Virus record (IMG/VR): IMGVR_UViG_3300043391_000113
Location: 660-64,659 of that record
Strand: one strand, 5' to 3'
Source: a virus
Lineage: Duplodnaviria; Caudoviricetes
DNA length: 64,000 nucleotides
Part shown: piece by piece, positions 149 to 64,000 of the stretch
How positions within the stretch are numbered: position 1 is the first letter of the stretch
Layout: every line of letters starts with the position of its first letter
Translations under genes and position numbers: made by a program
Notes under the pieces: model-generated
Database searches by the model: none
What the model was told of the DNA's origin: nothing
Seen by the model: the letters and a program-made list of their open reading frames with translations, nothing else

Positions 149-167
149 TTAATAACAGTGTTATCAA
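149..167. promoter_or_regulatory. 19-bp palindromic early-region box
   Basis: TTAATAACAGTGTTATCAA, 4 nt after a stop codon. Confidence 0.8.
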
Positions 168-1151: not shown

Positions 1152-1586
1152 GTGTTAGTCAGCGAAAAGATCATCGCCGCGCTCAAGGATTCAGACAAGC
1201 CGCTTACCACGTTAGAACTGGTGAAGCGCACGGGTGTAACTGTTCCCCAAACCTACCTGCCACTGTTCCGGCTAAAACAGGCAGGAACTATCACGCGCAA
1301 CCAAAACGGGGAAGGCCATTACATCTACGCAATTGATAACACTGTTATCAATTCCAACCCCGCACCAAAAACAGACGCGCCCAAGCCCAAGAAGAAAGTA
1401 GGACGCCCACTGGGGTCAACGACCAAACCCAAGCTAGTCGAAGAAAAAGCCAAAGCACCCGTGTCCTCGTGGGTTACTACTGCCGTGTATGAGGCATTGA
1501 AAAAGAAAACCGAAGCATACGAGAAGCAGTGGTTGGACTCGCTCGCTGTGATCGACTACCTCGAAAGAAAGCTCAAGGGGCAATGA
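1152..1586 (+). CDS. winged-helix DNA-binding protein with basic linker
   Basis: IIAALKDSDKPLTTLELVKRTGVTVPQTYLPLFRLKQAGTITR fits a wHTH; GGAGAG RBS at 1141 before GTG 1152. Confidence 0.65.
   Translation: MLVSEKIIAALKDSDKPLTTLELVKRTGVTVPQTYLPLFRLKQAGTITRNQNGEGHYIYAIDNTVINSNPAPKTDAPKPKKKVGRPLGSTTKPKLVEEKAKAPVSSWVTTAVYEALKKKTEAYEKQWLDSLAVIDYLERKLKGQ
1333..1351. promoter_or_regulatory. palindromic box inside wHTH gene
   Basis: AATTGATAACA-C-TGTTATCAATT (1331-1353), perfect 11-1-11 inverted repeat. Confidence 0.8.
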
Positions 1587-8646: not shown

Positions 8647-8656
8647 CGGGGAAAGA

Positions 8657-10636: not shown

Positions 10637-10647
10637 GGAGAATATTC

Positions 10648-11514: not shown

Positions 11515-11741
11515 TGGCTGGATATTCCAGACGGACAGCGTGGCTGATTAAGCAAGCTGACCCTCACCTTTTGGGTGTTCGACTCGGTGTGATGTGTGTT
11601 GACAGGGATATACCTGTTGCAGATATCGCTGAGTGGGTGGGGGTCAGCCGCATGGCAGTTTATGCGTGGTTTCGTGGGGAATCCGTGGTGTCAAACACTC
11701 ACGAAGCAAAGGTCAAAGAGTTGATCCGCAGATTGACTTGA
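11514..11741 (+). CDS. Cro/XRE-like HTH protein
   Basis: IPVADIAEWVGVSRMAVYAWFRG. Confidence 0.75.
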   Translation: MAGYSRRTAWLIKQADPHLLGVRLGVMCVDRDIPVADIAEWVGVSRMAVYAWFRGESVVSNTHEAKVKELIRRLT

Positions 11742-11749
11742 TGAGTACG

Positions 11750-11831
11750 GAAGGGCTAGGCTAGCTACCAAAAAGAGTGTTCGCCGTCACATTCCTGCCC
11801 TTCTTACACAACGACGGATACAAGGACGGCT
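11750..11831 (+). promoter_or_regulatory. candidate structured leader of primase gene
   Basis: GAAGGGC(11750)/GCCCTTC(11797) stem; loop GCCGTC(11783) complementary to GACGG(11813) and GACGGC(11825). Confidence 0.45.
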
Positions 11832-14909: not shown

Positions 14910-14943
14910 CCCCCTGATGGCTCCGCCTCGGGGGGATTTTTTT
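14910..14943 (+). terminator. intrinsic terminator at the convergence of replication and virion modules
   Basis: CCCCCTGA...TCGGGGGG 8-bp stem then T7. Confidence 0.55.
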
Positions 14944-17900
14944 AGTTTTCGTCGAAGAACTTGTCTTCGATACCGGCCTTCAACTTCTTGTTGAATGTCA
15001 CACCGTGCAGCATAGTGCGCTCTGCGGCTTGACGTGCCTTGATGGACTTCATGAGAGTGGAACCCGTGATCATGTACTCGGGTCTGGCTTCGTTAAATGC
15101 CATGATCTCATCCCGTGCACGGTCCATCAGATCCCCGTCCATGCCTGTGTATCCCATGTTATACATGTTGAGCAGCTTAGTCCGGCGCTGGATAACTTCG
15201 CGCTCATAGCTCTTGGCACCAGAGATTTTTTCATACGTGCTGGAGAGGTCTGCTGGAGAAAACCCTATCATCTGCATCAGCCCGTTGTAGGCACTGATGT
15301 CCTCATCTACTGGGTCACCTTTGAGAGTCAACGCACCCTCACTTAAATAGCGTGCGCCTTTCAACACGTTACGGGCTGCGCTGGGGAGAATCCCTTCAAT
15401 TGCACGCTCCACATTCCCTTCTTGGAACATTTTGATGGAGTTGCCCACATTGACGGCATACGTACCGGCGGGGCCAAAGGCTTGCTGCATAGCTGACAAT
15501 ACATAGCCATGTTCTGCAATACCACGGGGGTCATCACGGAAGATCAGATCCGTTGCCAGTCCTGAACGATTGGCGACTTCCAAGTTGGTGATGTAGTTGA
15601 ACGCGCCCTTGTACAAGAACTCACCAAACGCTTGACGCAGTTCTTCATGCACATCAAACGGCTCATCATCGTCCCCTGCAAGTGCTTGCAGCATGGTGGC
15701 CAGAGTAGTCAGCGCCCCGTAGAACGGCATGCCTTTGATGCCAAGGAACATTGTGGACATGCCATAAGTGGCTAGCAGTTGCCGTCTGGCAGCGGCACGT
15801 ATATCTGCATTTTGCCCCTTGAACGCCTGATGAAACGCACGGGCAAGAATGAACGCGCTGTTCCACGCAAACGATTTGAATGTCGCAAAGACTCGGCCAA
15901 CTGGGTGTTGCATCCAGCGTGGGGCGGTTGCCGCCATACCAGACGTATGAATGTCTTTAACCGTCCGCACCGCAAATCTAATTGCGGCATCTGGGTCCAT
16001 ACCGTCTTCAATTGCCAGATCAAACGCAGCAACTGCCGTGACGCCACGGTTGTACTTCTCTGCTGCTGAGAACGGTAGTGCGATGCCATCAAGAATCTTG
16101 GCTTTTAGCCCAAGATAATCAGACGTTTTTTGCCTGCGCCCTTCTAAAACTTCCCGTGCCATCGTGTGTTCAAGCTGGCCATGATCCATCAAAGCCGCAT
16201 ATAAACCGGCATAGCGCAGATTGCCTTTTTGCCCACCCAACTGATTGTTCACCATAACCCTGTGCGCATTAGCCATTTTGGCTGATGTCGTACCAAACCC
16301 AAATTGCCCACCCAACATGGGCCATGCAAGCAGGGGCAGAGAAGTCAAGTTGATGATGGCAGAGGAGATGTTTCCGGCGATGTACTCGTAATAGCTAAGT
16401 GCCGTAGCCCCGTGTACAAAGTCGTTGTATGTTGGGTTGTGGAAAAAGTTGCTTTGCCCTTTGATGTTCTGAGCAACCACATCTAGGTCAATGTCGTTAG
16501 CGTTTGCAGCTTGTGCTTCTATCTCACTGATTGCTTTGTCAATCTGTGGGGAGTATTCGGAGTTGGCCAGTTTGCGTTTCCAGCGAACCATCACATCGCC
16601 GTAGCCACGCACAATGTCCTTCTCCATACCCAACACGTTTTTGGACTTGAGGAACTGCTTGGCAATTGAGTCGGCTGGGAACAGGGAGATGTACGCTTGA
16701 TACGCAGCATCAACTTGTTGCTGGCTTGCCCCATTGGCACGCAAATCTTCTATTACTTTGCCAATGAATGAAGTAGTCGGCACCGCGTTTGGATCAAACG
16801 AAATGTCTTCCAAATTTTGGTAAGACTTGTGTTGGATGTTTTGTGGTACCAACATCTGGTTAATGAACTGCTGACGCTCCCGAATAGACTCAAACGCTGT
16901 AGCCGTACGATCCCCAGTTTGGGGGTCAGCGTATTCCACCCAAAACTCACCCCGGCGCAAAAATGGGATGTACCCCGGAATGCGTTTACGGGTTTGAAAT
17001 TCGCTAACAAGTTTTGCTTTGAGGCTGGGAGTCACACTTTTGAGCACCAGCGTTTCATACGCCTTTAACGCAGCGTCGTATTCTTCCCGAATGTCTTTGT
17101 AGACTTGTTGGACTTCTGGGTCCAACGCAGCAAACTCCCGGCGCAACCGTGAATAGGTTGGCATTTGTGTGCTGGTTGGGTTAAACCCAGCATTAAGAAT
17201 ATCCAACTCTTGTAGCCGCGCTTCAACAGCTATGTCGTTGAGCTTATTCATCTGTTGCGGATGTTTTTTCTCAACGTCCAAAAATTCTTGGTATTTTTTG
17301 TTTACCTCTGCAATTGACTGTTCCTGCACGCCATTGCGCTTCTCCAGTGCATCAAGCAGTTTTTGGATGGAAGGAAGCTGGTCGCCGTAGATCGTATTGA
17401 TGTTATCGAGCCGCAGCAGGCCCATAGCAATCTGCTTCCACGTCACATCCTTGACGTTGGAGATCGTATTCGCTGCGCTGTTAGCTGCTTGCTTGGTCAA
17501 CTGGGGCATTGCCTGCGCGACTTGCCCAACTACCCCAAAGTTACCCAAAAAGAACAAGTCATCAGTAGGCGTAGGCTTAACGTCAGATGAGATGTCAATG
17601 GCATCGCTGACAAACTTCATCCCTGCTTCGTACGCGGACTGACCTTTGCGCAGCCCAAAGAACTCTGCAATCGCTTGCACGATGCGCTGGAACATGTTGC
17701 CGCTGCGTGGGGCTTTGATGCCCTTGAGCAGTGCTTGGAACTCTGGGTTACCAACAAGCTCGGATGCAAACTCTTGCAGGTTAGTAGCACCGTAGGCTGC
17801 ACCGAGTCGGTCTTGGACTTGTACGAAGAAGTTCTGGAACTCTTTGGTCAGCGGGTGGTTAGGGTTACGCAGCACGTGAGAAATGGCTGCATGGATTACC

Positions 17901-20900
17901 TCGTGGATAACCGTGTGTGCGTTCAGCCCATTCTCGTAGTGCAGCGTAATCGTGTCGGTGGTAGGGCTGTACACCCCAGCGTTGTCGTTCTCAACAACGC
18001 CCACTTCAATTTTGGTTTTCAGCCCCAGTGCTTGAATTTTGCGCAGCACACGGGCGACATCGGAGTTACCAATTGTCTTGGCCAAATGCCCTAGCAGATC
18101 ATTCAAGTCGCCGTGGTGTGCAAATGACTTGCCCAGTGCGTCTAGGTCTGGCCCGACATAGGAGGTCAGAGGCAGGTCAAGATTACGTCTGACGTATGAC
18201 TCGGTTTCAGCGGATACACGGTCCTTGTTGACCTTCTTCTCCCCGCGCTGTACTACATATCCAGAGAACAGCTTGTCTGCAAATTTCTCAATGTCATCAA
18301 GCCCAGAAGTGCGCCGTGGTCGCCGTTCTTCTGGCGGGGTAGCGTCCAACACATCATTGACGGTTTTATGGGCGCCCTTGGCAAATTCTTTGATTGCGTG
18401 CTTATTGATCTCTGAATACATCGCCCCGCGCTGAGCGGGCGTAGCCTTGAGAAGCGCAGCAAATAAGGGCTTCATATCCGCGCCTAACCCAGCAATCTCT
18501 TTCTGGATGACGCCAAGTTGTGCTTTGTTGCGTTTTACCCGTTCCGCGTAATCGGCTTTTTGCTTTTGCGTAGCCGCAGTTTCTGGATGTTGTAGAGCAT
18601 CCATGATGCGTACGTACTCGTTGAAGAGTCCGGGGATGCGCAACAGTTTGTGTGGTTCCGTGCCCGTGTAGTTTTCACGGGGCAAATACTTAAAAGGAAC
18701 CCCAAACTCAACTGCGGTTTGTAGAAGCGCCCTGCCTAAAAGTACGCTAACACGCAGGGAGTTATGCTTGACAATTCTCTTTTGAAGAGCAACGTACTTG
18801 TCTTCTACTGTAGGCGGCTCAGTGTCTTCTCGTACATCAGTTGATTCAGCAGTTGTTTGAGATGTACCCAGTCGTTCGCGTCCAGCTTCGTTAACTCGTC
18901 CGGCACCAATACTTCTTTGACCCTGTTCTCGTTGTAGTACTGGTCCAGTACCCGAAACGCCGCGCTTAGACTTTCCAGCGATAGGCCCCGTAATTGCGGA
19001 CTCATTGGTAGCTCCTTGTCCTTCAAGGGCACGGAACTCTGGCCGTGCTAAATAGGCTTCGATACGGTTACGTTGATTTTCACTTGCACGGTCAGCGAGC
19101 GCCTCAAGCATAGTCTTGGCAAGACTTGCATCTTCAATCTTGGTGATATCCAAACCAAGCAGGGGAGAACCTTCACGGCGCAAAACAGCCGTAGGTCCAA
19201 TCCCCAAAGTTGCAAGGACATTTTGATCAATAACAACTGGAACAGTTGCCGGGGTAAGCTTCGCCAAGGCCGTGGATTTTTTGACCACCGCCGGAGTAGC
19301 GTATTTGATTTCCGTTATTGGGTTACCAATGTGGGTGTTTGAAGTCCCATCATCGTTGTACAACTTTTCAACCGGCTGCAACCCAACTTTTGGGGCAGTC
19401 TCCGCGTCGTACAGATTTACGGTAGCTCCGGTTTTATTGTTGAGTACCCCAACAACAGGGCGCATTCCTTCCGGTATTTGGCTTACGTCCGTGACGGGCG
19501 TAAATTTGCCGTCCTGTTCATACCCCAAACGGACAGAATGGTTGCCAAACCCGGCCTGTAAATCGTAGAGAATTTCCTGCCCATCTTCATTTTTTACGTA
19601 CAGCGCAGCGTGTGGGGCATAAGTCTTACCCTGCCCCTTGCCCGGAGATCCTTTTGTACGACTTGTTCTACCGTTCTCATCAACAGCGTACGTACTGCCC
19701 TTGGCAGTGGTAAAGCCAACTATTGGCCCCGTAGGAGTTGCCGCTGCTTCTGCTGGGGCGGCACTGGGCGCTGCCGTAGGAACCGTACCCCCAAGCTCTT
19801 GGATTTTCTGTTGCAGCGCAGCAATAAAGTCTGGGTTCTGGTCCTTTGCAGACTTGATGAACTCCCCTTTTAAGAAGCCTTCAAGCGCGGGAAGCTGTGC
19901 AGTCTTAACAAGATTTGCTTGCCACGGCAGAAGATTTGTCGGGGGCGGTGCTGGAGCAACAGCAGGTGGAACTCCCGAAACGGGAGTTTGCCCCGGAGTT
20001 TGCCCCAAAGGTGGAGTTTGAGGCGCAGCGGGGGTTTGCGGGGGTACTTGGGGCGGGACTTGGGGCGGAACAGGAGTTTGCCCCGGAGTTTGACCGGGAG
20101 TTTGCTGTTGAGTTGGAGTTTGCTGTGGAGTTCGCGCACGTTCAGCCGCTCCACCTACTCCGCCAAATGCACCACCCGCAGCCGCCCCGCGAATCGTAGA
20201 CTCTAGGATACGGTTCCAGCCTTCGCTGTTGAAGACTTCGCGGTTTGCATCAACAAACTTCTCAGCAGCAAGACCAATTGTTTCCTGCGCACCTTCGGTC
20301 AGGCCCTCTGTACTAACACCCTTTAGAACTCCAGAGGTAACAGAGCGCAACAAGCCCTGCTGCATTCCTGATTTTTCAAGGAGCTTCTCAACAACTCCTA
20401 CTTTGACTGGACCCGTCAGGCTTTTGAGGACTTGTGCAGGAAGAACGGAATCCAACGCAGCGGAAGCCGAACCAAATAGCAGTGCTGCTCCGGGTTCAAA
20501 CTCACCAGTCTGGTTGTAAATGTTCTCAAAGATCTCTGGCGCAGCTTGCGCGTAAGACCCAAGGTACACACCAACGCCTTGAGCAGCGGCTTTTTTGCCA
20601 GCGCTTGCTGCTACCGTTTGCTCAATATACTGTTTGGCTGCGGCACCAGTAAGCCCACGAACAGCAGCTTCTTTGGCAGCGGCACCAGCAATCCCACGGG
20701 CAGCAGCCACCTCAAGTCCAACACCGGGGATAAGTGTAGTCAGAAGATTGGGTACTTGCTCCGCTGCGGTCTCAAAAACAAAACCGGGAACATCACCAAT
20801 CCCACGTACATCTTTGAGTTCTTTGTACTGCGGTGAATAGTACGCATCAATCTCTCGCTGCGTCTGCGCAGCCTCTTCCATCTGCCGCTTGGCGTAATCA

Positions 20901-21127
20901 TCAAAGCCAAGCATGCTGGCTCCCATCGCGGGGAGCACATCACCAAAAGCAGAACTGAGTTGTTTAGCGCCGCGCTTGAGCGCACGGCCACCCATCTCCC
21001 CGAAGGATAAATCCGACATAGGGAGGTTGTGTTTTTTATAAAGTTCCCTTAACTGAGACGAAACTTCCTCTTGCGATAAAGAATCATCAATCCGAGTTGG
21101 CCCAAAATGTGGGAGATCTATGATCAT
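14942..21127 (-). CDS. large internal virion (ejection) protein, polyvalent type, with HExxH motif
   Basis: 2061 aa; Ala/Gly-rich N-terminus, Pro/Gln linker, HEVIH at 17891-17905, last gene of the virion operon. Confidence 0.75.
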   Translation of the reverse strand: MIIDLPHFGPTRIDDSLSQEEVSSQLRELYKKHNLPMSDLSFGEMGGRALKRGAKQLSSAFGDVLPAMGASMLGFDDYAKRQMEEAAQTQREIDAYYSPQYKELKDVRGIGDVPGFVFETAAEQVPNLLTTLIPGVGLEVAAARGIAGAAAKEAAVRGLTGAAAKQYIEQTVAASAGKKAAAQGVGVYLGSYAQAAPEIFENIYNQTGEFEPGAALLFGSASAALDSVLPAQVLKSLTGPVKVGVVEKLLEKSGMQQGLLRSVTSGVLKGVSTEGLTEGAQETIGLAAEKFVDANREVFNSEGWNRILESTIRGAAAGGAFGGVGGAAERARTPQQTPTQQQTPGQTPGQTPVPPQVPPQVPPQTPAAPQTPPLGQTPGQTPVSGVPPAVAPAPPPTNLLPWQANLVKTAQLPALEGFLKGEFIKSAKDQNPDFIAALQQKIQELGGTVPTAAPSAAPAEAAATPTGPIVGFTTAKGSTYAVDENGRTSRTKGSPGKGQGKTYAPHAALYVKNEDGQEILYDLQAGFGNHSVRLGYEQDGKFTPVTDVSQIPEGMRPVVGVLNNKTGATVNLYDAETAPKVGLQPVEKLYNDDGTSNTHIGNPITEIKYATPAVVKKSTALAKLTPATVPVVIDQNVLATLGIGPTAVLRREGSPLLGLDITKIEDASLAKTMLEALADRASENQRNRIEAYLARPEFRALEGQGATNESAITGPIAGKSKRGVSGTGPVLQREQGQRSIGAGRVNEAGRERLGTSQTTAESTDVREDTEPPTVEDKYVALQKRIVKHNSLRVSVLLGRALLQTAVEFGVPFKYLPRENYTGTEPHKLLRIPGLFNEYVRIMDALQHPETAATQKQKADYAERVKRNKAQLGVIQKEIAGLGADMKPLFAALLKATPAQRGAMYSEINKHAIKEFAKGAHKTVNDVLDATPPEERRPRRTSGLDDIEKFADKLFSGYVVQRGEKKVNKDRVSAETESYVRRNLDLPLTSYVGPDLDALGKSFAHHGDLNDLLGHLAKTIGNSDVARVLRKIQALGLKTKIEVGVVENDNAGVYSPTTDTITLHYENGLNAHTVIHEVIHAAISHVLRNPNHPLTKEFQNFFVQVQDRLGAAYGATNLQEFASELVGNPEFQALLKGIKAPRSGNMFQRIVQAIAEFFGLRKGQSAYEAGMKFVSDAIDISSDVKPTPTDDLFFLGNFGVVGQVAQAMPQLTKQAANSAANTISNVKDVTWKQIAMGLLRLDNINTIYGDQLPSIQKLLDALEKRNGVQEQSIAEVNKKYQEFLDVEKKHPQQMNKLNDIAVEARLQELDILNAGFNPTSTQMPTYSRLRREFAALDPEVQQVYKDIREEYDAALKAYETLVLKSVTPSLKAKLVSEFQTRKRIPGYIPFLRRGEFWVEYADPQTGDRTATAFESIRERQQFINQMLVPQNIQHKSYQNLEDISFDPNAVPTTSFIGKVIEDLRANGASQQQVDAAYQAYISLFPADSIAKQFLKSKNVLGMEKDIVRGYGDVMVRWKRKLANSEYSPQIDKAISEIEAQAANANDIDLDVVAQNIKGQSNFFHNPTYNDFVHGATALSYYEYIAGNISSAIINLTSLPLLAWPMLGGQFGFGTTSAKMANAHRVMVNNQLGGQKGNLRYAGLYAALMDHGQLEHTMAREVLEGRRQKTSDYLGLKAKILDGIALPFSAAEKYNRGVTAVAAFDLAIEDGMDPDAAIRFAVRTVKDIHTSGMAATAPRWMQHPVGRVFATFKSFAWNSAFILARAFHQAFKGQNADIRAAARRQLLATYGMSTMFLGIKGMPFYGALTTLATMLQALAGDDDEPFDVHEELRQAFGEFLYKGAFNYITNLEVANRSGLATDLIFRDDPRGIAEHGYVLSAMQQAFGPAGTYAVNVGNSIKMFQEGNVERAIEGILPSAARNVLKGARYLSEGALTLKGDPVDEDISAYNGLMQMIGFSPADLSSTYEKISGAKSYEREVIQRRTKLLNMYNMGYTGMDGDLMDRARDEIMAFNEARPEYMITGSTLMKSIKARQAAERTMLHGVTFNKKLKAGIEDKFFDEN
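18805..19005 (-). CDS. nested out-of-frame ORF (66 aa) within the large virion protein gene
   Basis: AAGGAG 6 nt upstream of ATG; MSPQLRGLSLESL...MYEKTLSRLQ; host frame here is linker-like. Confidence 0.55.
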   Translation of the reverse strand: MSPQLRGLSLESLSAAFRVLDQYYNENRVKEVLVPDELTKLDANDWVHLKQLLNQLMYEKTLSRLQ

Positions 21128-36243: not shown

Positions 36244-36369
36244 TTAAACCTCAGTTTCGCAGGCAACTCCAGTCACTTCGACTACACAAGAGATAACAGG
36301 AACCCACACTTGGTTCTCTTCATCCCAGATGTACTCGTTCCCGTCTTCGGGTTTTTCAATATTTACCAT
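36244..36369 (-). CDS. small protein (41 aa, not in ORF track)
   Basis: MVNIEKPEDGNEYIWDEENQVWVPVISCVVEVTGVACETEV*; shares the PxDGxxYxWDE motif with 38118-38540. Confidence 0.55.
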   Translation of the reverse strand: MVNIEKPEDGNEYIWDEENQVWVPVISCVVEVTGVACETEV

Positions 36370-38111
36370 GTTACCGTTCCAGTTCCAGATGTAAATGTGT
36401 AAATTTTATACCCAGCCCGACTTGATGTATCGGGCGTTGGTACAGACGGTCCAGTAGTTCCGTTACACACAAGTGAGGAGGTCATTGCAGTGATGCTTGG
36501 CAACGAGCTTGGGTAAGCAATGATTACAACGCCAGAACCACCGTTGCCGCCAGCACCGTCGCTACTTCCGTTATAACCGCCGCCACCACCACCACCGCCA
36601 GTATTTGTAGCTCCAGCACTACCGGCTCCACCTTGACCACCAGCGCCACCAGTTGTTGGAGAAGCTGGTGTAGTAACTGTGCCGGAATAACCGCCGCCGT
36701 TTCTTGCGCCGCCAGAGCCACCACCAGCATAAGTTACTGAAGTGCCAGTAATACTGGATGCAATACCTGCGCCCCCGCCACCAGACGCAGAACCAGAACC
36801 CGCGCCGCCAACTCCAAACGCTCCGCCGCCGCCACCAGAAGGATATGGAGAAGCCGCAGTTGCAAGTCCATTACCTCCAACTTGTCCTTGACCAGCTATG
36901 GCCGTGCCGCCAACAAGACCGTTTATGCCAGCAGTAGCCGCGCCGCCGCCAGAAGCACCAGCTAAACCGTTTGCAGCTCCCCCGCCACCACCGCCACCAC
37001 CGGTTGCGGTAATACTGCTAAATACAGAACTAGAACCATTAGTCCCGCTTCCTTGAGATACTCCTCCGGTCCCGTTTGCGCCAACAGTGATGGTAATTGC
37101 GGAGCCAGAAACAACGCCAAAGTTGCTATGCGCTAAATAACCACCAGCGCCGCCTCCGCCACCTAAACTACCGCCACCGCCTCCGCCACCAACAACAAGC
37201 AAGTCCATGCCGGTAACAGCAAAAGGAAGCGGGGTTGTCCTTGGGGCTAATGTGCTGGTCGTTGTAAACACATGCTCAACAAAGTTACCGGACACATAAA
37301 CCGTGCCACCATCAAAATACTGAGTTGTACCGGGATAGCGAATAACTACGATACCGGAGCCACCTGCTGCCGAAGACCCAGCCGACCGTAGACCGCCACC
37401 GCCGCCACCCGTGTTTGCTTGTCCTGCGATTGGGCCAACACTCCCGGTGCCACCATTACCGCCGCCCCCAACACCGCCAGTTCCTCCAGTTGTATCCGCA
37501 CCGCCACCGCCACCGCCAGCATAAACAACCCTAGTGCCAGTAATATCAGACGCAATACCAGCGCCGCCGTTGCCGCCAACATCAGTTACTGCTTGATTTA
37601 AACCAACTGTTCCGGCTCCACCGCCGCCGCCGCCGTCAAACTGAAAACTGTTATTTGCTACGCCGCCCGCATTACCTTGTCCAGAAATCCCTGCCCCCGC
37701 CGTTCCAGCGGAACCTGCTGTTGCTTGCGCCCCGCCGCCGCCTGACCCACCTGACCCGCCACCGTTTGCGCTTGCTGCCCCAGTGCCAGACCCTCCAAAA
37801 CCACCCCCAGCGGCAACAATTCGTCCCGTAAATGCCCCAGAGCTTGCGGCGTCAAATACAGATGCCTGCCCCGCAGCGCCCCCTGCGCCACCACCACCAA
37901 CAGTTACAAAATAAGAAGCCCCCGGTGCAACGCCAGCATATCCTTGAAGAACTCCACCGCCTCCGCCGCCAGCACCGTTAGAAGTACCACCACCGCCACC
38001 ACCGGCAACAAGCAGATACTCCACAGTCGTTGGAGGCACATTAGTCCATGTCCCTTGCTTAATTGCAAGGGCGACCTGTGAGAGCGTCCAGATACCCGAA
38101 TAGGCGGCCAT
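36363..38111 (-). CDS. Gly-rich fibre-like protein, two Gly-rich domains
   Basis: EYLLVAGGGGGG...GGSGIVVIRYP, then LLVVGGGGGGG...GGSGVVIIAYP. Confidence 0.7.
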   Translation of the reverse strand: MAAYSGIWTLSQVALAIKQGTWTNVPPTTVEYLLVAGGGGGGTSNGAGGGGGGVLQGYAGVAPGASYFVTVGGGGAGGAAGQASVFDAASSGAFTGRIVAAGGGFGGSGTGAASANGGGSGGSGGGGAQATAGSAGTAGAGISGQGNAGGVANNSFQFDGGGGGGAGTVGLNQAVTDVGGNGGAGIASDITGTRVVYAGGGGGGADTTGGTGGVGGGGNGGTGSVGPIAGQANTGGGGGGLRSAGSSAAGGSGIVVIRYPGTTQYFDGGTVYVSGNFVEHVFTTTSTLAPRTTPLPFAVTGMDLLVVGGGGGGGSLGGGGGAGGYLAHSNFGVVSGSAITITVGANGTGGVSQGSGTNGSSSVFSSITATGGGGGGGGAANGLAGASGGGAATAGINGLVGGTAIAGQGQVGGNGLATAASPYPSGGGGGAFGVGGAGSGSASGGGGAGIASSITGTSVTYAGGGSGGARNGGGYSGTVTTPASPTTGGAGGQGGAGSAGATNTGGGGGGGGYNGSSDGAGGNGGSGVVIIAYPSSLPSITAMTSSLVCNGTTGPSVPTPDTSSRAGYKIYTFTSGTGTVTW

Positions 38112-57480: not shown

Positions 57481-57494
57481 ATTTTTGCAAATAT

Positions 57495-57654
57495 GGGGGT
57501 GGGGGGTTGCGTTTTGGAAACATAAGGGGGGTGTTTCTATAAATACGAGTAGTTATAGTGGCTAAGAGGGGATTTGGGAAGTGGGGTATCCCGTGTGCAG
57601 ATTAGTGTGTAGGCGAGGCTGGCGGAGTCCCATCTGGCATTTGGGGGGTGGGGG
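57495..57654 (+). other. G-tract-rich intergenic segment
   Basis: Eight runs of 3-6 G; GGGGGTGGGGGG at 57495 mirrored by GGGGGGTGGGGG at 57643. Confidence 0.7.
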
Positions 57655-57681
57655 TCCTGTCCCTATGGGATATCAAATAGT

Positions 57682-57736: not shown

Positions 57737-57755
57737 TTGATAACAGTGTTACTAA
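57737..57755. promoter_or_regulatory. 19-bp palindromic early-region box
   Basis: TTGATAACAGTGTTACTAA. Confidence 0.8.
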
Positions 57756-57769
57756 ATGGAGCAAACACT

Positions 57770-58480
57770 ATGAAAGCAACCAAAGCAACCAACGCCTCGA
57801 CCATCACCACCGAAAACCAATTGGTGGTAGCCATTGCGGACGCAATGAGCGTAGAAGGTCAGGCAACCAAGAAGTGGCGCAATATCGTTGCACCCGGAAT
57901 GATCAAGGTCTATAAGACCTTCGAAGGTGCAACGCAAGCACGCGACCGTCTCATTGAGCGTGCGATCACGCCTAACCTTGGCGAACCGTACAAACTGGCA
58001 TTGGCAACGACCCTTCCAGATACTCGTTCCAAGACTGGCAAGACAATTGCGGATCAAAATGCGAAGGCATGGAAGGCTGACCAATTGCCTACTTGGTTGG
58101 CTGATTTCGTGGAGACAATGCCAGTGTCAACGCCGAAAGAAAAGGCGGATCGTACGAAGGCAATGCGCAACAAGAAAACGTACAAAGGCTACGTTGAATT
58201 GATCCAAGCGTTGAAGGCGTCCGCACGGTCGCAAGGTAAGATCCAATTCTCTCGCATTTGCGAGTATGCATGGCCGAAACCCAAGACTGCTAAGCCCAAG
58301 ACTGCTAAGCCCAAGGCAGAGGCAGAGGCCAAACCCGAGGATAGCAAACTGAATCCGCGTCAGACACTGGTGCAGTTATTGAACAATGCGAAAGCGTACG
58401 CGCAGAAGCATGAGGACCTGCCCTCGCAGGTCGCAACGATTGCCGCGATCTCGAAAGCAATCGAGCTACTTGGTAGCTAA
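57770..58480 (+). CDS. hypothetical early protein
   Basis: Lys/Ala-rich ORF, GGAG RBS, PKTAK duplication. Confidence 0.75.
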   Translation: MKATKATNASTITTENQLVVAIADAMSVEGQATKKWRNIVAPGMIKVYKTFEGATQARDRLIERAITPNLGEPYKLALATTLPDTRSKTGKTIADQNAKAWKADQLPTWLADFVETMPVSTPKEKADRTKAMRNKKTYKGYVELIQALKASARSQGKIQFSRICEYAWPKPKTAKPKTAKPKAEAEAKPEDSKLNPRQTLVQLLNNAKAYAQKHEDLPSQVATIAAISKAIELLGS

Positions 58481-58499
58481 TTAGTAACAGTGTTACTAA
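58481..58499. promoter_or_regulatory. 19-bp palindromic early-region box
   Basis: TTAGTAACAGTGTTACTAA, perfect 9-1-9, abuts stop codon. Confidence 0.8.
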
Positions 58500-58500
58500 A

Positions 58501-58534
58501 CCCCACAGGACTCTGGTTCTGTGGGGTTTTTTTT
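58501..58534 (+). terminator. intrinsic terminator
   Basis: CCCCACAG...CTGTGGGG then T8. Confidence 0.85.
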
Positions 58535-58597
58535 CGCCCAGAGTTTTTATGATAGTTCTATGATAGTTCTCTGGGGATGATGCGGATGATGCTGTGG

Positions 58598-59073
58598 GAC
58601 CGCAGTACACGAAGTGTACTGCGCTTTTGCGCAAGCCGTCAAGCAGGGGTCTGTTCCATTGTTCCAGCCTGTTCCAGAGAATGGAACAGAGCTAAACCCA
58701 GCATCCATGCGGGTTGCAGGGGTGTTTTTCTCTCTTTGTTCCATTGTTCCATTAAAAAATTATACATACGGTGGGGAAAAATTTATCTCAACACAGAAAA
58801 AACGTGTTGTCACGTGATGAGAAAAGAGCGGATCTCGGCAAGTTGTATTTTTTCTGGAACAATGGAACACGAAACTTGACACGCAGTACGTATGTATATG
58901 ATTCCATTGCTCTTTTTCTTTGTTCCACGACGGAACAAATGGCCCTTTTTTGGAACAAACCCCCGTTTTTCGGAACAAACTACCATTCCGGGGCATTTGA
59001 TAACACTGTTATCACTACCGCTAGTGCTCTTTTCGCCTTCCCGACCGCAGTACACCTAGTGTACTGCGCTTTT
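58598..59073. repeat. twin hairpin direct repeats enclosing 12 GGAACA/TGTTCC repeats
   Basis: GACCGCAGTACAC-NNN-GTGTACTGCGCTTTT at 58598 and 59043; hexamers between 58652 and 58977. Confidence 0.8.
58997..59015. promoter_or_regulatory. 19-bp palindromic early-region box
   Basis: TTGATAACACTGTTATCAC. Confidence 0.8.
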
Positions 59074-59124
59074 CTGCGCCTCGTCAACAACTACTTGCTT
59101 CGCTTCGCTACAACAGTTAGGGAC

Positions 59125-59153
59125 TTGACAAACGTCTTGACTTGTGGTATAAT
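59125..59153 (+). promoter_or_regulatory. consensus sigma70 promoter
   Basis: TTGACA-17 bp-TATAAT with TG extension. Confidence 0.9.
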
Positions 59154-59222
59154 AGAGTCTTCAGTAGGAGTTCGCCTACTGAACGGGAGGCTACGCGAAG
59201 CGTGCCCCCGAGGCAGGGGTGT

Positions 59223-59241
59223 TTGATAACACTGTTAACTT
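59223..59241. promoter_or_regulatory. 19-bp palindromic early-region box
   Basis: TTGATAACACTGTTAACTT. Confidence 0.75.
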
Positions 59242-59257
59242 TTACGAGGATAGAGAT

Positions 59258-59350
59258 ATGAAATCTGACGACTGGGACGCAATCATTGGGTACATCAGCG
59301 TGATTGGCATTTGCGTGATCTGCATCATGTTGATCGTGGGGTGTCTATGA
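59258..59350 (+). CDS. 30-aa single-TM peptide
   Basis: MKSDDWDAIIGYISVIGICVICIMLIVGCL*; GAGGA RBS; ATGA overlap. Confidence 0.55.
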   Translation: MKSDDWDAIIGYISVIGICVICIMLIVGCL

Positions 59351-59550
59351 AGTATTGCAACAAGTGTGGAGATGATGTTCCTGCTAAGCGTCATCGACTC
59401 GGGTACAGGACATGCCACGCATGTGGTGAGTCAGATGCCCGTGCTCGCAAACGCACAGTAGCCCCGCTGAGCAAATCAAATTACTACTACTTCACCGAAG
59501 ACTCGGTGCGTGATGGTGATCTTGCTCGGCTCAACCCGAAACGTGTTTGA
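59347..59550 (+). CDS. C4 zinc-finger protein
   Basis: CNKCGDDVPAKRHRLGYRTCHAC. Confidence 0.7.
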   Translation: MKYCNKCGDDVPAKRHRLGYRTCHACGESDARARKRTVAPLSKSNYYYFTEDSVRDGDLARLNPKRV

Positions 59551-59565
59551 TAACAGTGTTAATAA
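59547..59565. promoter_or_regulatory. 19-bp palindromic early-region box
   Basis: TTGATAACAGTGTTAATAA; supplies the TGA stop of the upstream gene. Confidence 0.8.
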
Positions 59566-59599
59566 ACCCGTAGATAAGAGCGCGTTAGCGCGAGGAGAG

Positions 59600-59812
59600 A
59601 TGAAGATGGTGAAAGGGAAAAGAGACTACGAAATGGTTCGTGCCCTGCGCGACAGGCGTGATGAGTTGGAGGAACGGTTAGCACTGCTACAGGCTAGGGA
59701 TGATCTGATATCCAAAGCCTTTCTGTCGTACAGAGAATCAGTATTGGCCGCGACGGCTGAACTAGCCAACATATTCAAACCAATCAAACCGGAGAGCGAA
59801 GATGACAAATGA
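59600..59812 (+). CDS. hypothetical coiled-coil protein
   Basis: GAGGAG RBS. Confidence 0.65.
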   Translation: MKMVKGKRDYEMVRALRDRRDELEERLALLQARDDLISKAFLSYRESVLAATAELANIFKPIKPESEDDK

Positions 59813-59993
59813 CCTATCAATAACTGTCCGTGTGCGTAACGTGTACGGCAACAAAACAATCTATCCCGTATGCGATAAGGCGAAGATCTTCGCCCAACTC
59901 GCAGGACATTCAACCCTCACGTCGATGACGCTCGACTGCATACGCAGACTGGGCTACTTGGTCGAGGTTGAGCAACAACTGGTGGAGGTGTGA
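59802..59993 (+). CDS. hypothetical protein
   Basis: VRNVYGNKTIYPVCDKAKIFAQLAG. Confidence 0.7.
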   Translation: MTNDLSITVRVRNVYGNKTIYPVCDKAKIFAQLAGHSTLTSMTLDCIRRLGYLVEVEQQLVEV

Positions 59994-59994
59994 C

Positions 59995-60162
59995 ATGGAT
60001 GAGAGGGTGATGAATAAAGATGATGAAGAGTACATCAGAACAATGCTTGAGAAAGCGGCGGTCAATGCCGAGCGTGGTAGGGCTAAAAGCGCCTCAGCAG
60101 ACTTGCGGCGTGCAATTAAATTCATAGACAAACTGATACAGGAGAAACGAGATGCTGATTAA
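59995..60162 (+). CDS. hypothetical protein
   Basis: GGAGG RBS, helical. Confidence 0.6.
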   Translation: MDERVMNKDDEEYIRTMLEKAAVNAERGRAKSASADLRRAIKFIDKLIQEKRDAD

Positions 60163-60361
60163 AACAGAGAAGGGGATCGAGGTGCGCAAGGATTGGGGGC
60201 CAACCCTAATCGGGATTGCGTACAAGCGTCCCGGTCCAACGAGTTGCAGGATCATTAGTTGGGACATGGAGCGACTTCAATCATCGCTCCTGCGCAAGTT
60301 CAAACCCAACTTCAGGGATCGCATACTCACCGTGCTGCGCATCCAGCGCATGTACTTTTGA
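60152..60361 (+). CDS. hypothetical protein
   Basis: AGGAG RBS. Confidence 0.6.
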   Translation: MLIKTEKGIEVRKDWGPTLIGIAYKRPGPTSCRIISWDMERLQSSLLRKFKPNFRDRILTVLRIQRMYF

Positions 60362-60362
60362 T

Positions 60363-60381
60363 TTGATAACAGTGTTAACAA
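60363..60381. promoter_or_regulatory. 19-bp palindromic early-region box
   Basis: TTGATAACAGTGTTAACAA. Confidence 0.8.
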
Positions 60382-60423
60382 ATGAATTCAGCAAAGTTTT
60401 ACGGAACACATAAGGAGTTCAGA

Positions 60424-61347
60424 ATGAACGGTTTCTTTACGTATGCTGGCATGCGTGCCAAGCATGAATCGACCAAGCCCATCCGGGGCGATGGTGCAAA
60501 CGCGGGTTTGATCCCGCTGGGCAAACGCAACAAGACCCAAGAGCAGTTGATACGCAAAGTAATTGGTGACCAAGTGGTGTATGCGTGTCGCTTGTACGAC
60601 ACCGACTGCATCGAGTATTGGCCAGACGGGTCCGTGCTCATCAGGGACGGTGGGCACAACACCCAAACCACTGGCAAGTTTATTCATGAGTGGTCGCCAT
60701 TCGCATGCTGGAGACAGTACAGCCAGTTGTGGGTGCGCTTCACCAAGCTCAACAGGGACGTAGTTAATTACCCAGTGAGTGCGGTGGGGGATAGGTACGA
60801 GCCGTACATCACCGTGGATATGAACGGCTCACGTCAGTGGAAACGTGTGGGCAAGCAGACTGTGACCAAGCAGATCGTGGACCGTACAGCAATGGCAAAC
60901 GCACGTGCGCCTATGAAACCGTTCCTCGACTACGCCAAGGCTACGCTCAACATGAGTGATGGCTGGATCATGCACGGCACACGCAAGGAGGTGTTTGTAG
61001 AACAGGGCACGAGGATCACGGCATTACATAGGAACAGCATAGGATTCAACAAGCAGTTGTACCTTGCGATCAAAGAGGACTCGGACTTCTACGTCCCCGC
61101 CCTGTGCTTGCTCCTGCCCGATCACATGGCTAGGGAGACGAGGCTGTCTGATATAGAAGTAGTAGATGAGCGCATGCCCAAGTTCGGCAACATACCTACG
61201 TTCAAACGAGTCTTCGATACCAAGCACACGTACGTACAACTGCGTGATGCCGTGGACGTGATGATCAAGAAAGCATGCGACGTGATGATGCTAGTGGAAG
61301 AGGAGCCGCGTAACCCTACACGTTCCGTGAAACGTGTTGAGACTTGA
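60424..61347 (+). CDS. hypothetical early protein
   Basis: AAGGAG RBS at 60412; YACRLYDTDCIEY. Confidence 0.75.
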   Translation: MNGFFTYAGMRAKHESTKPIRGDGANAGLIPLGKRNKTQEQLIRKVIGDQVVYACRLYDTDCIEYWPDGSVLIRDGGHNTQTTGKFIHEWSPFACWRQYSQLWVRFTKLNRDVVNYPVSAVGDRYEPYITVDMNGSRQWKRVGKQTVTKQIVDRTAMANARAPMKPFLDYAKATLNMSDGWIMHGTRKEVFVEQGTRITALHRNSIGFNKQLYLAIKEDSDFYVPALCLLLPDHMARETRLSDIEVVDERMPKFGNIPTFKRVFDTKHTYVQLRDAVDVMIKKACDVMMLVEEEPRNPTRSVKRVET

Positions 61348-61372
61348 CAACAGGTCCTAGATGTGTTATAAT
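61344..61372 (+). promoter_or_regulatory. consensus sigma70 promoter
   Basis: TTGACA-17 bp-TATAAT with TG extension; overlaps upstream stop. Confidence 0.9.
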
Positions 61373-61409
61373 ATGTCTTATGGTGAGAGATCGCCATGTG
61401 TTTGTGTGT

Positions 61410-61428
61410 TTGATAACAGTGTTACTAT
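61410..61428. promoter_or_regulatory. 19-bp palindromic early-region box
   Basis: TTGATAACAGTGTTACTAT between promoter and RBS. Confidence 0.8.
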
Positions 61429-61447
61429 TTAACTAAGGAAGAGTGCC

Positions 61448-62572
61448 ATGTCTGTAATTAATTTTGGTTCGAGCATTTCCCTCAACGAGTTTGCACAAGC
61501 CGTTCACACGGTGGGCCGCGACGTGACCATCATTGGTCAAGGTGAGCCGGGGATCGGCAAGTCTGCAATGGGTTCGTTGCTTGCCAGTTGGAACCCCGAC
61601 TATGAGTTTGCGTATATCGACTGCACGTTGCTCGACTTGGGTGACTTCGCTCTGCCCTACACCGAGACAATTGATAACAGTGTTAACAATTCGGGGCCGA
61701 TCCGTGTCACGAAGTTTGCACCTAGCGTGCGCTTCAAGTTTCACATGGGCAAGCCCGTCATCATCATGCTCGATGAGATAGGCAAAGCATTGAAGGCGGT
61801 GAAGAACGTGCTGTTGACTCTCATGCTGGAGCATCGCATCGGTGACCACTACCTGCCCAAGGGTTCCATTGTGTTCGGCACGACCAACCTGATGAGCGAC
61901 GGTGTGGGCGATTTGCTTGAAGGCCATGCACGTAACCGTGTGTGTATGGCGAAGATCCGCAAGCCCGAGGTGGGGATTGACTCGACTGGTGCGGTGTTGC
62001 CCAATGGCTGGGCGGCGTGGGCTATTGCCAATGACGTGGCTCCCGAGATCATCGCTTGTGTGAAGCAGTACCCACACATGCTTGCGAGCTACACAGATCC
62101 ATCGCAGAAGGACAACGGGTATATCTGGAACCCTACTCGACCGGGCGACGGTGCAGTGGTGACCCCACGCTCGCTCTACAAGGCGAGTCACATTGCCAAG
62201 CAGAGATCCACGCTGGGCGAGGAGCTAACCATCGCGCTACTGGCAGGGACTATTGGCGAGGCGGCGGCGAGAGATATGCAAGCGTTCTTCACGGTGGTGG
62301 ACAAGCTCCCGACATGGGAGGCGATTGTCGCCAACCCGCTGGGTGCGAAGCTACCCGACGACACCATCGCCAAGTGCATCCTGTGCTTCAGTGCGGTGAC
62401 ACGTGTAGAGAAAGACACACTGTCCAAGTGGTTGCAGTACATGCAGCGCATGGACAAAGAGTGGCAAGCCATGTTCGCTACGAGCGTGATGAAGTCACCA
62501 ACCAAGCAACCGTTCTGTGTCACCAACCGTGACTTCAAGGACTATGCAATCGCCAATCAATGGCTGTTTTGA
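61448..62572 (+). CDS. MoxR-like AAA+ ATPase
   Basis: GEPGIGKS, IIMLDEI, GTTN, TPRS. Confidence 0.85.
   Translation: MSVINFGSSISLNEFAQAVHTVGRDVTIIGQGEPGIGKSAMGSLLASWNPDYEFAYIDCTLLDLGDFALPYTETIDNSVNNSGPIRVTKFAPSVRFKFHMGKPVIIMLDEIGKALKAVKNVLLTLMLEHRIGDHYLPKGSIVFGTTNLMSDGVGDLLEGHARNRVCMAKIRKPEVGIDSTGAVLPNGWAAWAIANDVAPEIIACVKQYPHMLASYTDPSQKDNGYIWNPTRPGDGAVVTPRSLYKASHIAKQRSTLGEELTIALLAGTIGEAAARDMQAFFTVVDKLPTWEAIVANPLGAKLPDDTIAKCILCFSAVTRVEKDTLSKWLQYMQRMDKEWQAMFATSVMKSPTKQPFCVTNRDFKDYAIANQWLF
61671..61689. promoter_or_regulatory. palindromic box inside AAA+ gene
   Basis: TTGATAACAGTGTTAACAA. Confidence 0.75.
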
Positions 62573-62587
62573 TAACACTGTTACTAA
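62569..62587. promoter_or_regulatory. 19-bp palindromic early-region box
   Basis: TTGATAACACTGTTACTAA; supplies the ATPase TGA stop. Confidence 0.8.
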
Positions 62588-62602
62588 ATAGAGGGAAGAG
62601 TA

Positions 62603-63766
62603 ATGAAACTAAGTGCTGAACAACGAGTGCAGAAAGCCCACGTGTGGCTCATGCGTAACCCCAAGTATTGCCTGTATTCGGGCGTCATCATGATCGGTAA
62701 GACAGAGGTCAGCGATAACGTACGTACAGCATACACCAACGGACGTGACGTTAAGTATGGCCGTGCATTCGTGGACAAGATCTCCGATCAAGACATCCGT
62801 GGCTTGATTCTCCATGAGAATCTTCACAAAGCGTTCCGACATATCACTACGTGGCGCAAGTTGTACGACGAGGACGGGCGCACCGCCAACATGGCGTGTG
62901 ACTACGTGATCAACCTGATGATTCACGACAGTGATCCCAAGGGTGCAGAGGTCACGTTACCTGAGGGTGGGTTGCTCGACGAGCGGTTCCGTGGCATGGA
63001 CGCGGGTTCCGTGTATCGCATCTTGCGTCAAGAGAAAGACGACAACGATGAAGGTGAGGACGGGGGCGAAGGTGGGGAAGGCTTCGACGAGCACGACTGG
63101 GAAGGTGGGCAGGAGATGTCTGCCGAGGAGAAGGAGAAGCTCGCCAAGGAGGTTGACCAAGCCCTGCGACAGGGCAAGCTGTTGGCAGGTAAGTTATCCG
63201 GTAACGTGCCGCGTGAGGTGCAGGACGCACTAGCGTCCAAGGTGGACTGGCGTGAGGTATTGCGCGAGTTCATCACATCCTTCTGCGTGGACAAGGACGA
63301 GAGTACGTGGCGCAGACCATCCCGTAGGTGGATCGACCAAGACATATACATGCCATCACTTATAGGTGAATCGTGTGGGCGCATCGTGGTGGCTATTGAT
63401 ATGTCTGGGTCCATCGGCACGGAAGAGGTGGGTCAGTTCTTGGGTGAGGTGCGTGCTATCTGTGAGCACGTCAAGCCCGAGGGTATTGACCTGCTGTACT
63501 GGGACACGGCTATCTGTCAGCACGAGAAGTACGAGCAGGATCAGTTGGATAGCTTGTTGCAAACAACTCAGCCACGCGGTGGTGGGGGTACGCATCCTCA
63601 GTGCATCGTGGAGTACATCAAGGACAAGCGCATCAAGGCTGAGTGTTGCGTCATCCTCACGGATGGATACGTTGGAGGTTGGGGCGATGGATGGCCGTGC
63701 CCAACCCTGTGGGCTATCACCACAGATCAAGTTAGTGCCATCGGTAAGACTGTTCATATTCAATAA
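62603..63766 (+). CDS. metallopeptidase-like plus VWA domain protein (DUF2201-type)
   Basis: AYTNG, HENLH (HExxH), NMACDYVIN, acidic linker, AIDMSGS MIDAS, GGGT, ILTDG. Confidence 0.85.
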   Translation: MKLSAEQRVQKAHVWLMRNPKYCLYSGVIMIGKTEVSDNVRTAYTNGRDVKYGRAFVDKISDQDIRGLILHENLHKAFRHITTWRKLYDEDGRTANMACDYVINLMIHDSDPKGAEVTLPEGGLLDERFRGMDAGSVYRILRQEKDDNDEGEDGGEGGEGFDEHDWEGGQEMSAEEKEKLAKEVDQALRQGKLLAGKLSGNVPREVQDALASKVDWREVLREFITSFCVDKDESTWRRPSRRWIDQDIYMPSLIGESCGRIVVAIDMSGSIGTEEVGQFLGEVRAICEHVKPEGIDLLYWDTAICQHEKYEQDQLDSLLQTTQPRGGGGTHPQCIVEYIKDKRIKAECCVILTDGYVGGWGDGWPCPTLWAITTDQVSAIGKTVHIQ

Positions 63767-63778
63767 CACTGTTATCAA
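63760..63778. promoter_or_regulatory. 19-bp palindromic early-region box
   Basis: TCAATAACACTGTTATCAA; supplies the TAA stop. Confidence 0.8.
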
Positions 63779-63793: not shown

Positions 63794-64000
63794 ATGATTC
63801 AGAATTCCGCTACGTTGGTTGATCTCGGCATCAGCATCTGGACTGGGCGCAAGCTCGACAAGAAGGTGTCCGAGGAGATTGATCAATCCAAGAACACCCG
63901 CGCCCGTGCTGGTAACTACAACAAGATCCTGCTTGCTGGTACGAAGCGCTTAGAGGAGTTGCAGAAAACCGTGACGGTCATCCGTCAGTGGCACTACGAG
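63794..64000 (+). CDS. 5' end of conserved early protein (DUF3150-like), truncated by window end
   Basis: MIQNSATLVDLGISIWTGRKLDKKVSEEID...AGNYNKILLAG; GAGGTG RBS. Confidence 0.7.
   Translation, partial: MIQNSATLVDLGISIWTGRKLDKKVSEEIDQSKNTRARAGNYNKILLAGTKRLEELQKTVTVIRQWHYE

Follow-up and report, generated by a model that had tools for sequence, protein, structure and literature searches.

A lineage-specific array of palindromes in the early region of an uncultured tailed-phage clade: a candidate operator or roadblock system

We analyzed a 64,000-nucleotide stretch of a virus of the class Caudoviricetes (here called the window), which comprises bases 660-64659 of the 64,659-bp IMG/VR virus record IMGVR_UViG_3300043391_000113. 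The subject of this analysis is a short palindrome, TAACA(G/C)TGTTA, that recurs among the early genes of this phage. Genes from 57.7 kb, through the junction of the record ends, to 14.7 kb are on the plus strand, and the rest are minus-strand virion genes. The ends of the record (window positions 63825-64000 and record bases 1-176) overlap by 176 nt, of which 175 are identical, and the overlap lies within a gene. Thus, the genome is circular, or circularly permuted in the assembly, despite its "linear" label, and the copies of the palindrome at 153 and 1337 belong to the same plus-strand arm as the others, across the junction.

The exact palindrome is present 12 times in the window, where 0.00 copies are expected from dinucleotide-preserving shuffles. 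This bears out the count given in an earlier reading of the letters alone (the sequence-only reading), whose coordinates are 4 nt lower because they were counted from the flank of a 19-bp form. All 12 copies lie within an arm of ~8.1 kb, and the remaining ~56 kb hold none. The earlier statement that the interval from 1.4 to 57.7 kb was empty also stands: copy counts were checked on the full 64,659-bp record, where we found no copies beyond the 12 and none of a reversed control pattern. Allowing one mismatch to TAACASTGTTA yielded zero additional copies in the window. Thus, the site is all-or-none in this genome. Nine of the 12 copies have TTGA as their left flank, and the right flank is more variable and NYAA-like, in agreement with the flank consensus first proposed. 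On the coding strand, the central base is G in seven sites and C in five. The sites are listed below, each with the span of the 19-bp form and the start of the core.

Site 1, 57737..57755 (core from 57741): 5' leader of the first early gene, ~+25 from promoter P1.
Site 2, 58481..58499 (core from 58485): 4 nt past the stop of the first early gene, just ahead of the terminator at 58498-58529.
Site 3, 58997..59015 (core from 59001): noncoding stretch between terminator T1 and promoter P2.
Site 4, 59223..59241 (core from 59227): leader, ~+67 from P2 and 20 nt 5' of the ATG at 59258.
Site 5, 59547..59565 (core from 59551): the TGA within the site is the stop of the zinc (Zn)-ribbon gene (59311-59550).
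Site 6, 60363..60381 (core from 60367): junction ahead of the 307-aa gene (60424-61347).
Site 7, 61410..61428 (core from 61414): leader, ~+35 from promoter P3, ahead of the MoxR-like ATPase gene.
Site 8, 61671..61689 (core from 61675): within the ATPase open reading frame (ORF), read D-N-S-V-N; position kept in the closest relative (L005) and in TAACA-NN relatives.
Site 9, 62569..62587 (core from 62573): the TGA within the site is the ATPase stop; the VWA/metallopeptidase gene is next.
Site 10, 63760..63778 (core from 63764): the TAA of the core is the stop of 62603-63766; the DUF3150-like gene is next.
Site 11, 149..167 (core from 153): past the stop of the DUF3150-like gene (142-144), then a GC hairpin (165-182) and the gene at 201-1052.
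Site 12, 1333..1351 (core from 1337): last copy, a perfect 21-bp palindrome, within the winged helix-turn-helix (wHTH) gene at 1098-1586.

The sequence-only reading had placed most copies at gene boundaries. This holds for five stop-to-start junctions, three 5' leaders, and one copy at a stop and terminator; it does not hold for one copy in noncoding DNA and two inside ORFs. Its claim that the palindrome supplies the stop codons of three genes was correct. The TGA codons at 59548-59550 and 62570-62572 come from the left flank, and the gene at 62603-63766 ends with the TAA at the start of the core. Directly 3' of the site at 153 we observed a GC-rich hairpin, GGGGGACAGCCGTCCCCC (165-182). The promoters, terminator, and genes among which the sites lie are as follows.

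Promoter P1, 57682..57709, plus strand: sigma70-like, TTGACT-16-TAATAT.
Promoter P2, 59125..59153, plus strand: perfect sigma70 promoter, TTGACA-17-TATAAT, 12/12 matches, with a TG extended -10.
Promoter P3, 61344..61372, plus strand: perfect sigma70 promoter, TTGACA-17-TATAAT, 12/12 matches, with a TG extended -10.
Terminator T1, 58498-58529: strong intrinsic terminator.
First early gene, 57770-58480, plus strand: 236 aa, helical, with a Lys/Pro/Ala-rich linker; sites 1 and 2 flank the gene.
Zn-ribbon gene, ORF 59311-59550, plus strand: DksA/TraR-like.
Conserved 307-aa gene, 60424-61347, plus strand.
VWA/metallopeptidase gene, 62603-63766, plus strand: follows the MoxR-like ATPase gene.
Gene after site 11 and the GC hairpin, 201-1052, plus strand.
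wHTH gene, 1098-1586, plus strand: contains site 12.

The early arm thus begins with the fast-evolving first early gene, followed by a noncoding stretch, a 30-aa hydrophobic ORF, the Zn-ribbon protein, and four orphan small ORFs. It ends with the 307-aa conserved protein, the MoxR-like AAA ATPase, the VWA protein with its HExxH motif, the DUF3150-like protein (whose gene spans the record ends, with its stop codon at 142-144), a 283-aa protein, and the wHTH protein. Beyond the last site lie genes for a resolvase-like nuclease, a second wHTH protein, DNA polymerase, helicase, and primase. Among ~50 proteins scanned, a subset of all ORFs, we found no RNA polymerase, integrase, or CI-like repressor.

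Queried with the VWA protein, IMG/VR gave 440 matching stretches, of which 80 loci were fetched and examined. We found that 63 of 81 sources hold at least three copies of a palindrome of their own in the same region. Palindromes with a two-base center are TAACA-NN-TGTTA, AAACA-NN-TGTTT, and TATCA-NN-TGATA, and those with a one-base center are AAACA-N-TGTTT, CTGTC-N-GACAG, CACAC-N-GTGTG, AAGTC-N-GACTT, ATGTC-N-GACAT, and CTACA-N-TGTAG; across the clade there are 8 to 10 half-site types. When 347 distinct sites were aligned, the arms proved to be 9 to 11 bp long, as in ATTTATTAACA-NN-TGTTAATAAAT and AAACTTCACAC-N-GTGTGAAGTTT. The sole relative with the identical word is L005, which is also the closest (87% nucleotide identity), and there six of six shared sites are at the same places and have the same central base. 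In six of the seven complete or near-complete relatives (records of 59 to 67 kb), 7 to 12 copies all fall in one stretch of 7 to 9 kb, and the reversed control pattern is absent from these relatives. DSL-LC04, which has only virion genes in common with the window, differs in its early region and lacks a repeated palindrome. The scan of the full genome and of relatives that the sequence-only reading had proposed gave no late-region copies in the window, and positions that are kept in relatives although the spelling is not.

One pair of relatives shows how sharply the spelling can change. The proteins of L072 and L077 are 83 to 97% identical (93% for the VWA protein), yet eight of eight orthologous sites differ (L072:3379-9724 and L077:4372-11051). 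The differences are confined to the inner 11 to 13 nt, AAACTT-CACACTGTGTG-AAGTTT in one and AAACTT-ACTGTCAGACAGT-AAGTT in the other, and, for the junction sites at or beyond the ATPase gene, tens of flanking bases are nearly the same in both phages. This pattern may reflect a long-standing divergence of site and binder, kept distinct by selection while recombination homogenises the remaining genome. Lineage-specific spelling at kept positions points to a fast-evolving DNA-docking protein that would control the early block.

An abrupt switch at all sites could also follow a change of host if the palindromes were boxes of a borrowed host transcription factor or nucleoid protein, with the spelling following the host. 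That no phage binder could be named is in keeping with this idea. However, there are 8 to 10 unrelated half-site types among phages whose proteins are 60 to 93% identical, and the L072/L077 switch, at 93% identity of the reference protein, changed the inner core alone. Motif type also tracks a phage gene better than it tracks overall divergence. Read directly against textbook consensus sequences, the spacing and sequence match none of Fur, FNR, CRP, and LexA. The window has TTGAT-N9-ATCAA where the FNR box is TTGAT-N4-ATCAA, and its GATAA and TTATC are 5 nt apart, whereas the distance is 9 nt in the Fur box. The mismatch in spacing to Fur and FNR had been pointed out in the sequence-only reading, correctly. 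We consider it improbable that the sites serve a host factor.

The comparison of relatives bears equally on the second alternative of the sequence-only reading, that the sites are borders of exchangeable cassettes, short repeats that guide early-gene shuffling as PeSL elements do. PeSL elements of T4-type phages consist of a sigma70 promoter and a stable terminator stem-loop and are a shown recombination substrate (PMC2839356, PMC4122927). Like them, the sites of the window are short, recur between small early genes, and lie in a hypervariable region, and one of the sites is followed by a GGGGG..CCCCC hairpin. Breakpoints, counted as ends of nucleotide similarity between relatives within 30 nt of junctions or sites, numbered 17.2 per site-bearing junction and 7.5 per other junction, a 2.3-fold excess. 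This excess is modest, and both the crude gene calls and the divergence among the sites confound it. In addition, the small genes between the sites at 59551 and 60367 are without homologues in the relatives, and L005 has a second module of a site and a GGGGG..CCCCC hairpin after the ATPase gene (L005:1290-1310). This second module looks like a local duplication or a transfer between sites. In contrast, intragenic sites had 1.5 breakpoint ends against a background of 2.8, and this lack of an excess argues against the site as a recombination hot spot. Unlike PeSL elements, the sites contain no promoter or terminator stem-loop, and a stable stem-loop of any kind forms at only 3 of the 12. The identity on offer is merely 11 to 23 bp, no recombinase was found among the ~50 proteins scanned, site positions are stable across the clade, and the differences in spelling between relatives would block exchange. 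The shuffling alternative is thus weak at best, and we regard it as quite improbable.

Each of the three early promoters of the window has a site downstream of it, at approximately +25 (P1), +67 (P2), and +35 (P3). The sequence-only reading had described the copies at 57737, 59223, and 61410 as lying between a sigma70 promoter and a ribosome-binding site, and this description was correct. The arm has these three promoters only, and 9 of the 12 sites have no promoter 25 to 67 nt upstream. We set beside them the early arms of relatives, which hold 80 distinct strong sigma70-like promoters. A site is centered between +1 and +90 at 50% of these promoters, compared with 9% at random. Upstream of or over the promoters, sites are found at 12%, the same as at random (12%), and so are not enriched. 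This geometry is of the elongation roadblock type and is unlike that of classical operators at -35/-10 or of activator sites.

We compared the sites as duplex DNA with the possibility that they act in the early mRNAs, as a hairpin or protein-binding element 5' of the ribosome-binding site with a role in processing, stability, or translational control. RNase III sites of T7, the targets of RegA and RegB in T4, and the Com site of Mu are elements that act at the mRNA level. The degeneracy of the outer arms is mirror-symmetric (A/G at -2 and T/C at +2; T/C at -5 and A/G at +5). Among the non-Watson-Crick pairs of the outer arms, G.T (214) and A.C (207) are about equally frequent, with no strand bias. 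Thus, G.U is not preferred over A.C, and nothing suggests that wobble pairs are tolerated on the transcribed strand. At the position beside the core, A/G on the left and T/C on the right are anti-correlated, with odds ratios of 0.44 for TAACA-NN, 0.16 for AAACA-NN (p=0.004), and 0.10 for AAACA-N (p=0.011). Double deviation is therefore avoided, which is what additive half-site binding predicts; compensatory pairing predicts the opposite, an odds ratio of >1. The genuine one-mismatch sites in relatives are half-site hybrids that combine TAACA with TATCA, AAACA, or GAACA, and such hybrids disrupt a stem.

Folding of the RNA gave a similar picture. The minimum free energy is -7.6, -5.8, and -4.8 kcal/mol at three sites of the window and -3.9 kcal/mol or weaker at the other nine. 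In five of the 12, it is -1.2 kcal/mol or weaker, no better than in shuffles. Several folds bypass the palindrome entirely, and there is no T-run at the sites. In six relatives (L033, L041, L050, L022, L029, and L040), the first copy lies 5' of the -35 element of the first early promoter, and that copy is therefore outside the early mRNA. Rfam gave no match at gathering score in three arm stretches (L003, L004, and L001), which cover 7 of the 12 sites. The mixed central base of the window (G 7 / C 5) is a further point against an element read on one strand of RNA. Together, these observations point to the sites acting as two-fold symmetric double-stranded DNA sites and not as hairpins.

The palindromes could, alternatively, be hairpin promoters for an RNA polymerase of the phage that is delivered with the virion (vRNAP). 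Phage N4 has three oriented hairpin promoters and a vRNAP. As in N4, the short inverted repeats of the window lie in the early region, and the gene order is N4-like. The MoxR-like ATPase/VWA-metallopeptidase pair, which the DUF3150-like gene follows, has cultured homologues in N4-like phages. A 2061-aa virion protein sits at the position that the vRNAP has in N4 and has a faint PHROG match (E = 5e-6) to the N-terminal, noncatalytic part of vRNAP. However, T7-like motifs B and C are missing from this protein, which also matched neither a PDB sequence nor an RNA polymerase family, Pfam included; a very remote homologue may have escaped these comparisons. Unlike N4, the phage has 12 sites, in mixed orientation (7:5), and no detectable RNA polymerase, and the arm is driven by host-type promoters, two of them perfect sigma70 promoters. 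The hairpins are weak and show no pairing covariation. An N4-type promoter role is very hard to credit on this evidence. The 2061-aa protein itself (14942-21127, minus strand) is of the polyvalent type and combines an LPD39 domain with a Pro/Gln/Thr-rich linker and with an HExxH motif near residue 1085. The PHROG 1314 name "HNH endonuclease" (within 61448-63766) refers to the VWA protein with the HExxH metallopeptidase motif.

Our preferred reading is that the palindromes form an array of symmetric operators or roadblocks at which a phage-encoded dimer would close the early arm, and we give it a probability of about one half. A dimeric, two-fold symmetric phage protein would dock on the 12 duplex sites. 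Once docked, it would obstruct host RNA polymerase, as a roadblock downstream of promoters, at gene junctions, and, in two cases, within genes. The whole 8-kb early arm would be shut as one block, which would constitute the early-to-middle switch. The same binding would probably also keep early genes silent when another phage of that type superinfects, and such silencing of kin would account for the fast diversification of the spelling. The specificity of the binder and the sites would then change together, lineage by lineage.

Several observations weigh against this reading. Protein binding, repression, the phage origin of the binder, and its identity are steps that we infer, and the sign of the regulation is reached in the same way. 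Spacers of one and two bases are found in separate zones of the same genome, which is awkward for a rigid dimer. In the AAACA-type relatives (L033, L026, L030, L034, L054, and L060), the upstream half of the arm has two-base centers and the downstream half has one-base centers. The one-base sites, TGTAAACACTGTTTACA, always have C at the center and run from the VWA gene onward; in L033, the two-base sites lie at 5221-9966 and the one-base sites at 10399-12997.

Three further points against the operator array favor the mRNA element described above. First, 206 of the 347 sites (59%) have their end within 60 nt (median, 18 nt) of a downstream start codon preceded by a Shine-Dalgarno sequence, although such closeness is expected for any element that has to fit where phage genes are separated by very short gaps. 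Second, sites prefer the transcribed side of promoters by 4:1, which, taken with the first point, could suggest a role at the RNA level. Third, the central bases in relatives are strand-biased (GA 52 and TC 6; C 28 and G 3), in part because copies are embedded in coding sequence, where they are read L-T-D-V-N. For an RNA hairpin, a change between one- and two-base spacers would merely be a change in loop size. There is also a recurrent variant, TAACAGGAGTTAATAAATG, in L006, L008, L010, L017, L022, and L029 (e.g., L022:6902), in which the Shine-Dalgarno sequence is at the center of the palindrome and the start codon is 8 nt on. Set against the pairing, hybrid, folding, and placement data given above, these points leave an mRNA-level role unlikely, though not negligibly so.

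The binder was not pinned down among the candidate early genes and helix-turn-helix families that we compared, and this also counts against the operator array. Of the genes compared, the first early gene (57770-58480) is the best candidate to encode the specificity factor, with a chance of about one in three. Between L072 and L077 it has diverged more than any other orthologue, with 51% identity and an N-terminal half that cannot be aligned. The gene is a unit of its own: of 34 loci, 29 have a site 5' of it and 20 have sites on both sides of it. We estimated the effect of sharing a motif on pairwise identity while controlling for overall divergence. This effect was largest for the first early gene (+10 points), followed by the DUF3150-like gene (+7), the gene after g201 (+6), and the ATPase (+4). 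There was none for the two universal wHTH families, the Zn-ribbon protein, g201, or the nuclease. The regression uses pairs that are not independent and is confounded by phylogeny, a weakness for the reading as a whole; the effect is thus a lead and not a test.

The predicted structures do not help this candidate. AlphaFold modeled the first early protein with confidence, at pLDDT 83 over its full length and 94 for the N-terminal domain taken from a relative, but neither Foldseek nor VIA found a convincing match among the solved structures of the PDB or to a known DNA-binding fold. The best scores were E values of at least 1 in Foldseek and, in VIA, Z scores of no more than 6.7 for the full protein and 5.5 for the N-terminal domain. 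There is therefore no structural support for DNA binding by this protein, and its sole DNA-binding hint is the Lys/Pro/Ala-rich linker or tails.

Nor did the helix-turn-helix proteins supply a binder. The family of the wHTH gene at 1098-1586 is found only in TAACA-type phages and is absent from AAACA-type phages. In the wider family to which it belongs (w76), the recognition helix varies freely within one motif class. In the universal g1924 wHTH family, which showed no same-motif effect, L072 and L077 have the same recognition helix and the same wing despite entirely different sites.

Two other proteins were set aside as candidates. The Zn-ribbon protein is near-identical in L072 and L077 except for an 11-aa insert and has no motif association. 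PG201, a conserved gene of ~100 aa after g201, often has a site inside it and is absent from the window and from L005.

Other features of the arm and of the phage were observed as well. A strongly hydrophobic 30-aa ORF (59258-59350) is the first frame after P2 and site 4, before the Zn-ribbon gene, and may encode a small membrane peptide. The interval 58530-59125, between T1 and P2, is ~600 nt without a convincing gene, has been described as origin-like, and holds one palindrome and two copies of a hairpin with a 10-bp stem (GTACAC.., at 58605 and 59050). Between P1 and the late operon, in the divergent intergenic region (57490-57660), there are three plus-strand G-runs, GGGGGTGGGG(GG). L033, L041, L050, L022, L029, and L040 have a comparable G-rich block ahead of the first palindrome or the first promoter. 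Searches of the ESM Atlas with the DUF3150-like gene and the 307-aa gene gave just "hypothetical" proteins and the DUF3150 lead. The terminase links the phage to DSL-LC04 and to the pelagiphages HTVC023P and HTVC027P. Megablast and a protein search with the gene at 36363-38111 found no match among cultured relatives in the phage collection, and the pelagiphage papers do not mention promoters or palindromes.

The first alternative of the sequence-only reading was a multi-operator or roadblock system analogous to the stoperators of mycobacteriophages. Stoperators of Cluster A phages (L5, Bxb1, and Trixie) are asymmetric and are bound by a monomeric repressor (PMC9283540). They lie mostly in one orientation to transcription, are spread genome-wide, and form an immunity system of temperate phages (PMC6550527, PMC9283540). 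The window resembles them in its many near-identical short sites within short intergenic spaces and transcription units. Stoperators are thought to stop elongating host RNA polymerase, and the same effect is what we propose for the sites of the window. In both systems, related phages have different motifs, and motif type correlates with a gene of the phage (PMC6550527). Unlike stoperators, the window sites are palindromic with symmetric degeneracy and are mixed in orientation (G 7 / C 5). They occupy 8.1 kb of 64.5 kb, and one arm in six of seven complete relatives, whereas stoperators are genome-wide. An integrase or a CI-like repressor was not found among the ~50 window proteins scanned. The operator or roadblock part of the earlier alternative is therefore favored, by the duplex half-site behavior, the kept positions, and the placement downstream of promoters, but the array is not a member of the stoperator family, being palindromic, confined to one arm, and without a repressor or lysogeny gene among the proteins scanned.

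The conserved short inverted repeats (CIRs) of phiC31, reported by Ingham, Wilson, and Smith in the 1990s, are said to be bound by the repressor, the product of gene c, in a temperate phage. CIRs reportedly share with the window sites a multicopy inverted repeat in intergenic positions of the early region, with many copies away from promoters. With these features, they are a closer formal analogue than stoperators. Unlike phiC31, which is described as temperate with gene c as the source of the binder, the window phage looks virulent.

A bolder version of the preferred reading, which we hold as a speculation and think doubtful, is that this N4-related, virulent, aquatic clade has a "heteroimmunity-like" system without lysogeny. 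The first early protein, modeled with confidence as an all-helical fold without a solved relative, would then be a new type of sequence-specific DNA-binding dimer that acts on ~10 palindromes, closes the arm, and silences kin. Such a system would explain the "islands of divergence" between L072 and L077, namely, the inner 11 to 13 bases of the sites and the first early gene.

Dispersed operator arrays are best known from temperate actinobacteriophages, and here such an array would be found in a large uncultured clade of an apparently virulent, Gram-negative type. The clade is a natural experiment in which a regulator and ~10 target sites would have changed specificity together. The binder, once found, would yield orthogonal pairs of protein and operator, and it would provide a test of whether lytic phages exclude their relatives at the level of transcription.

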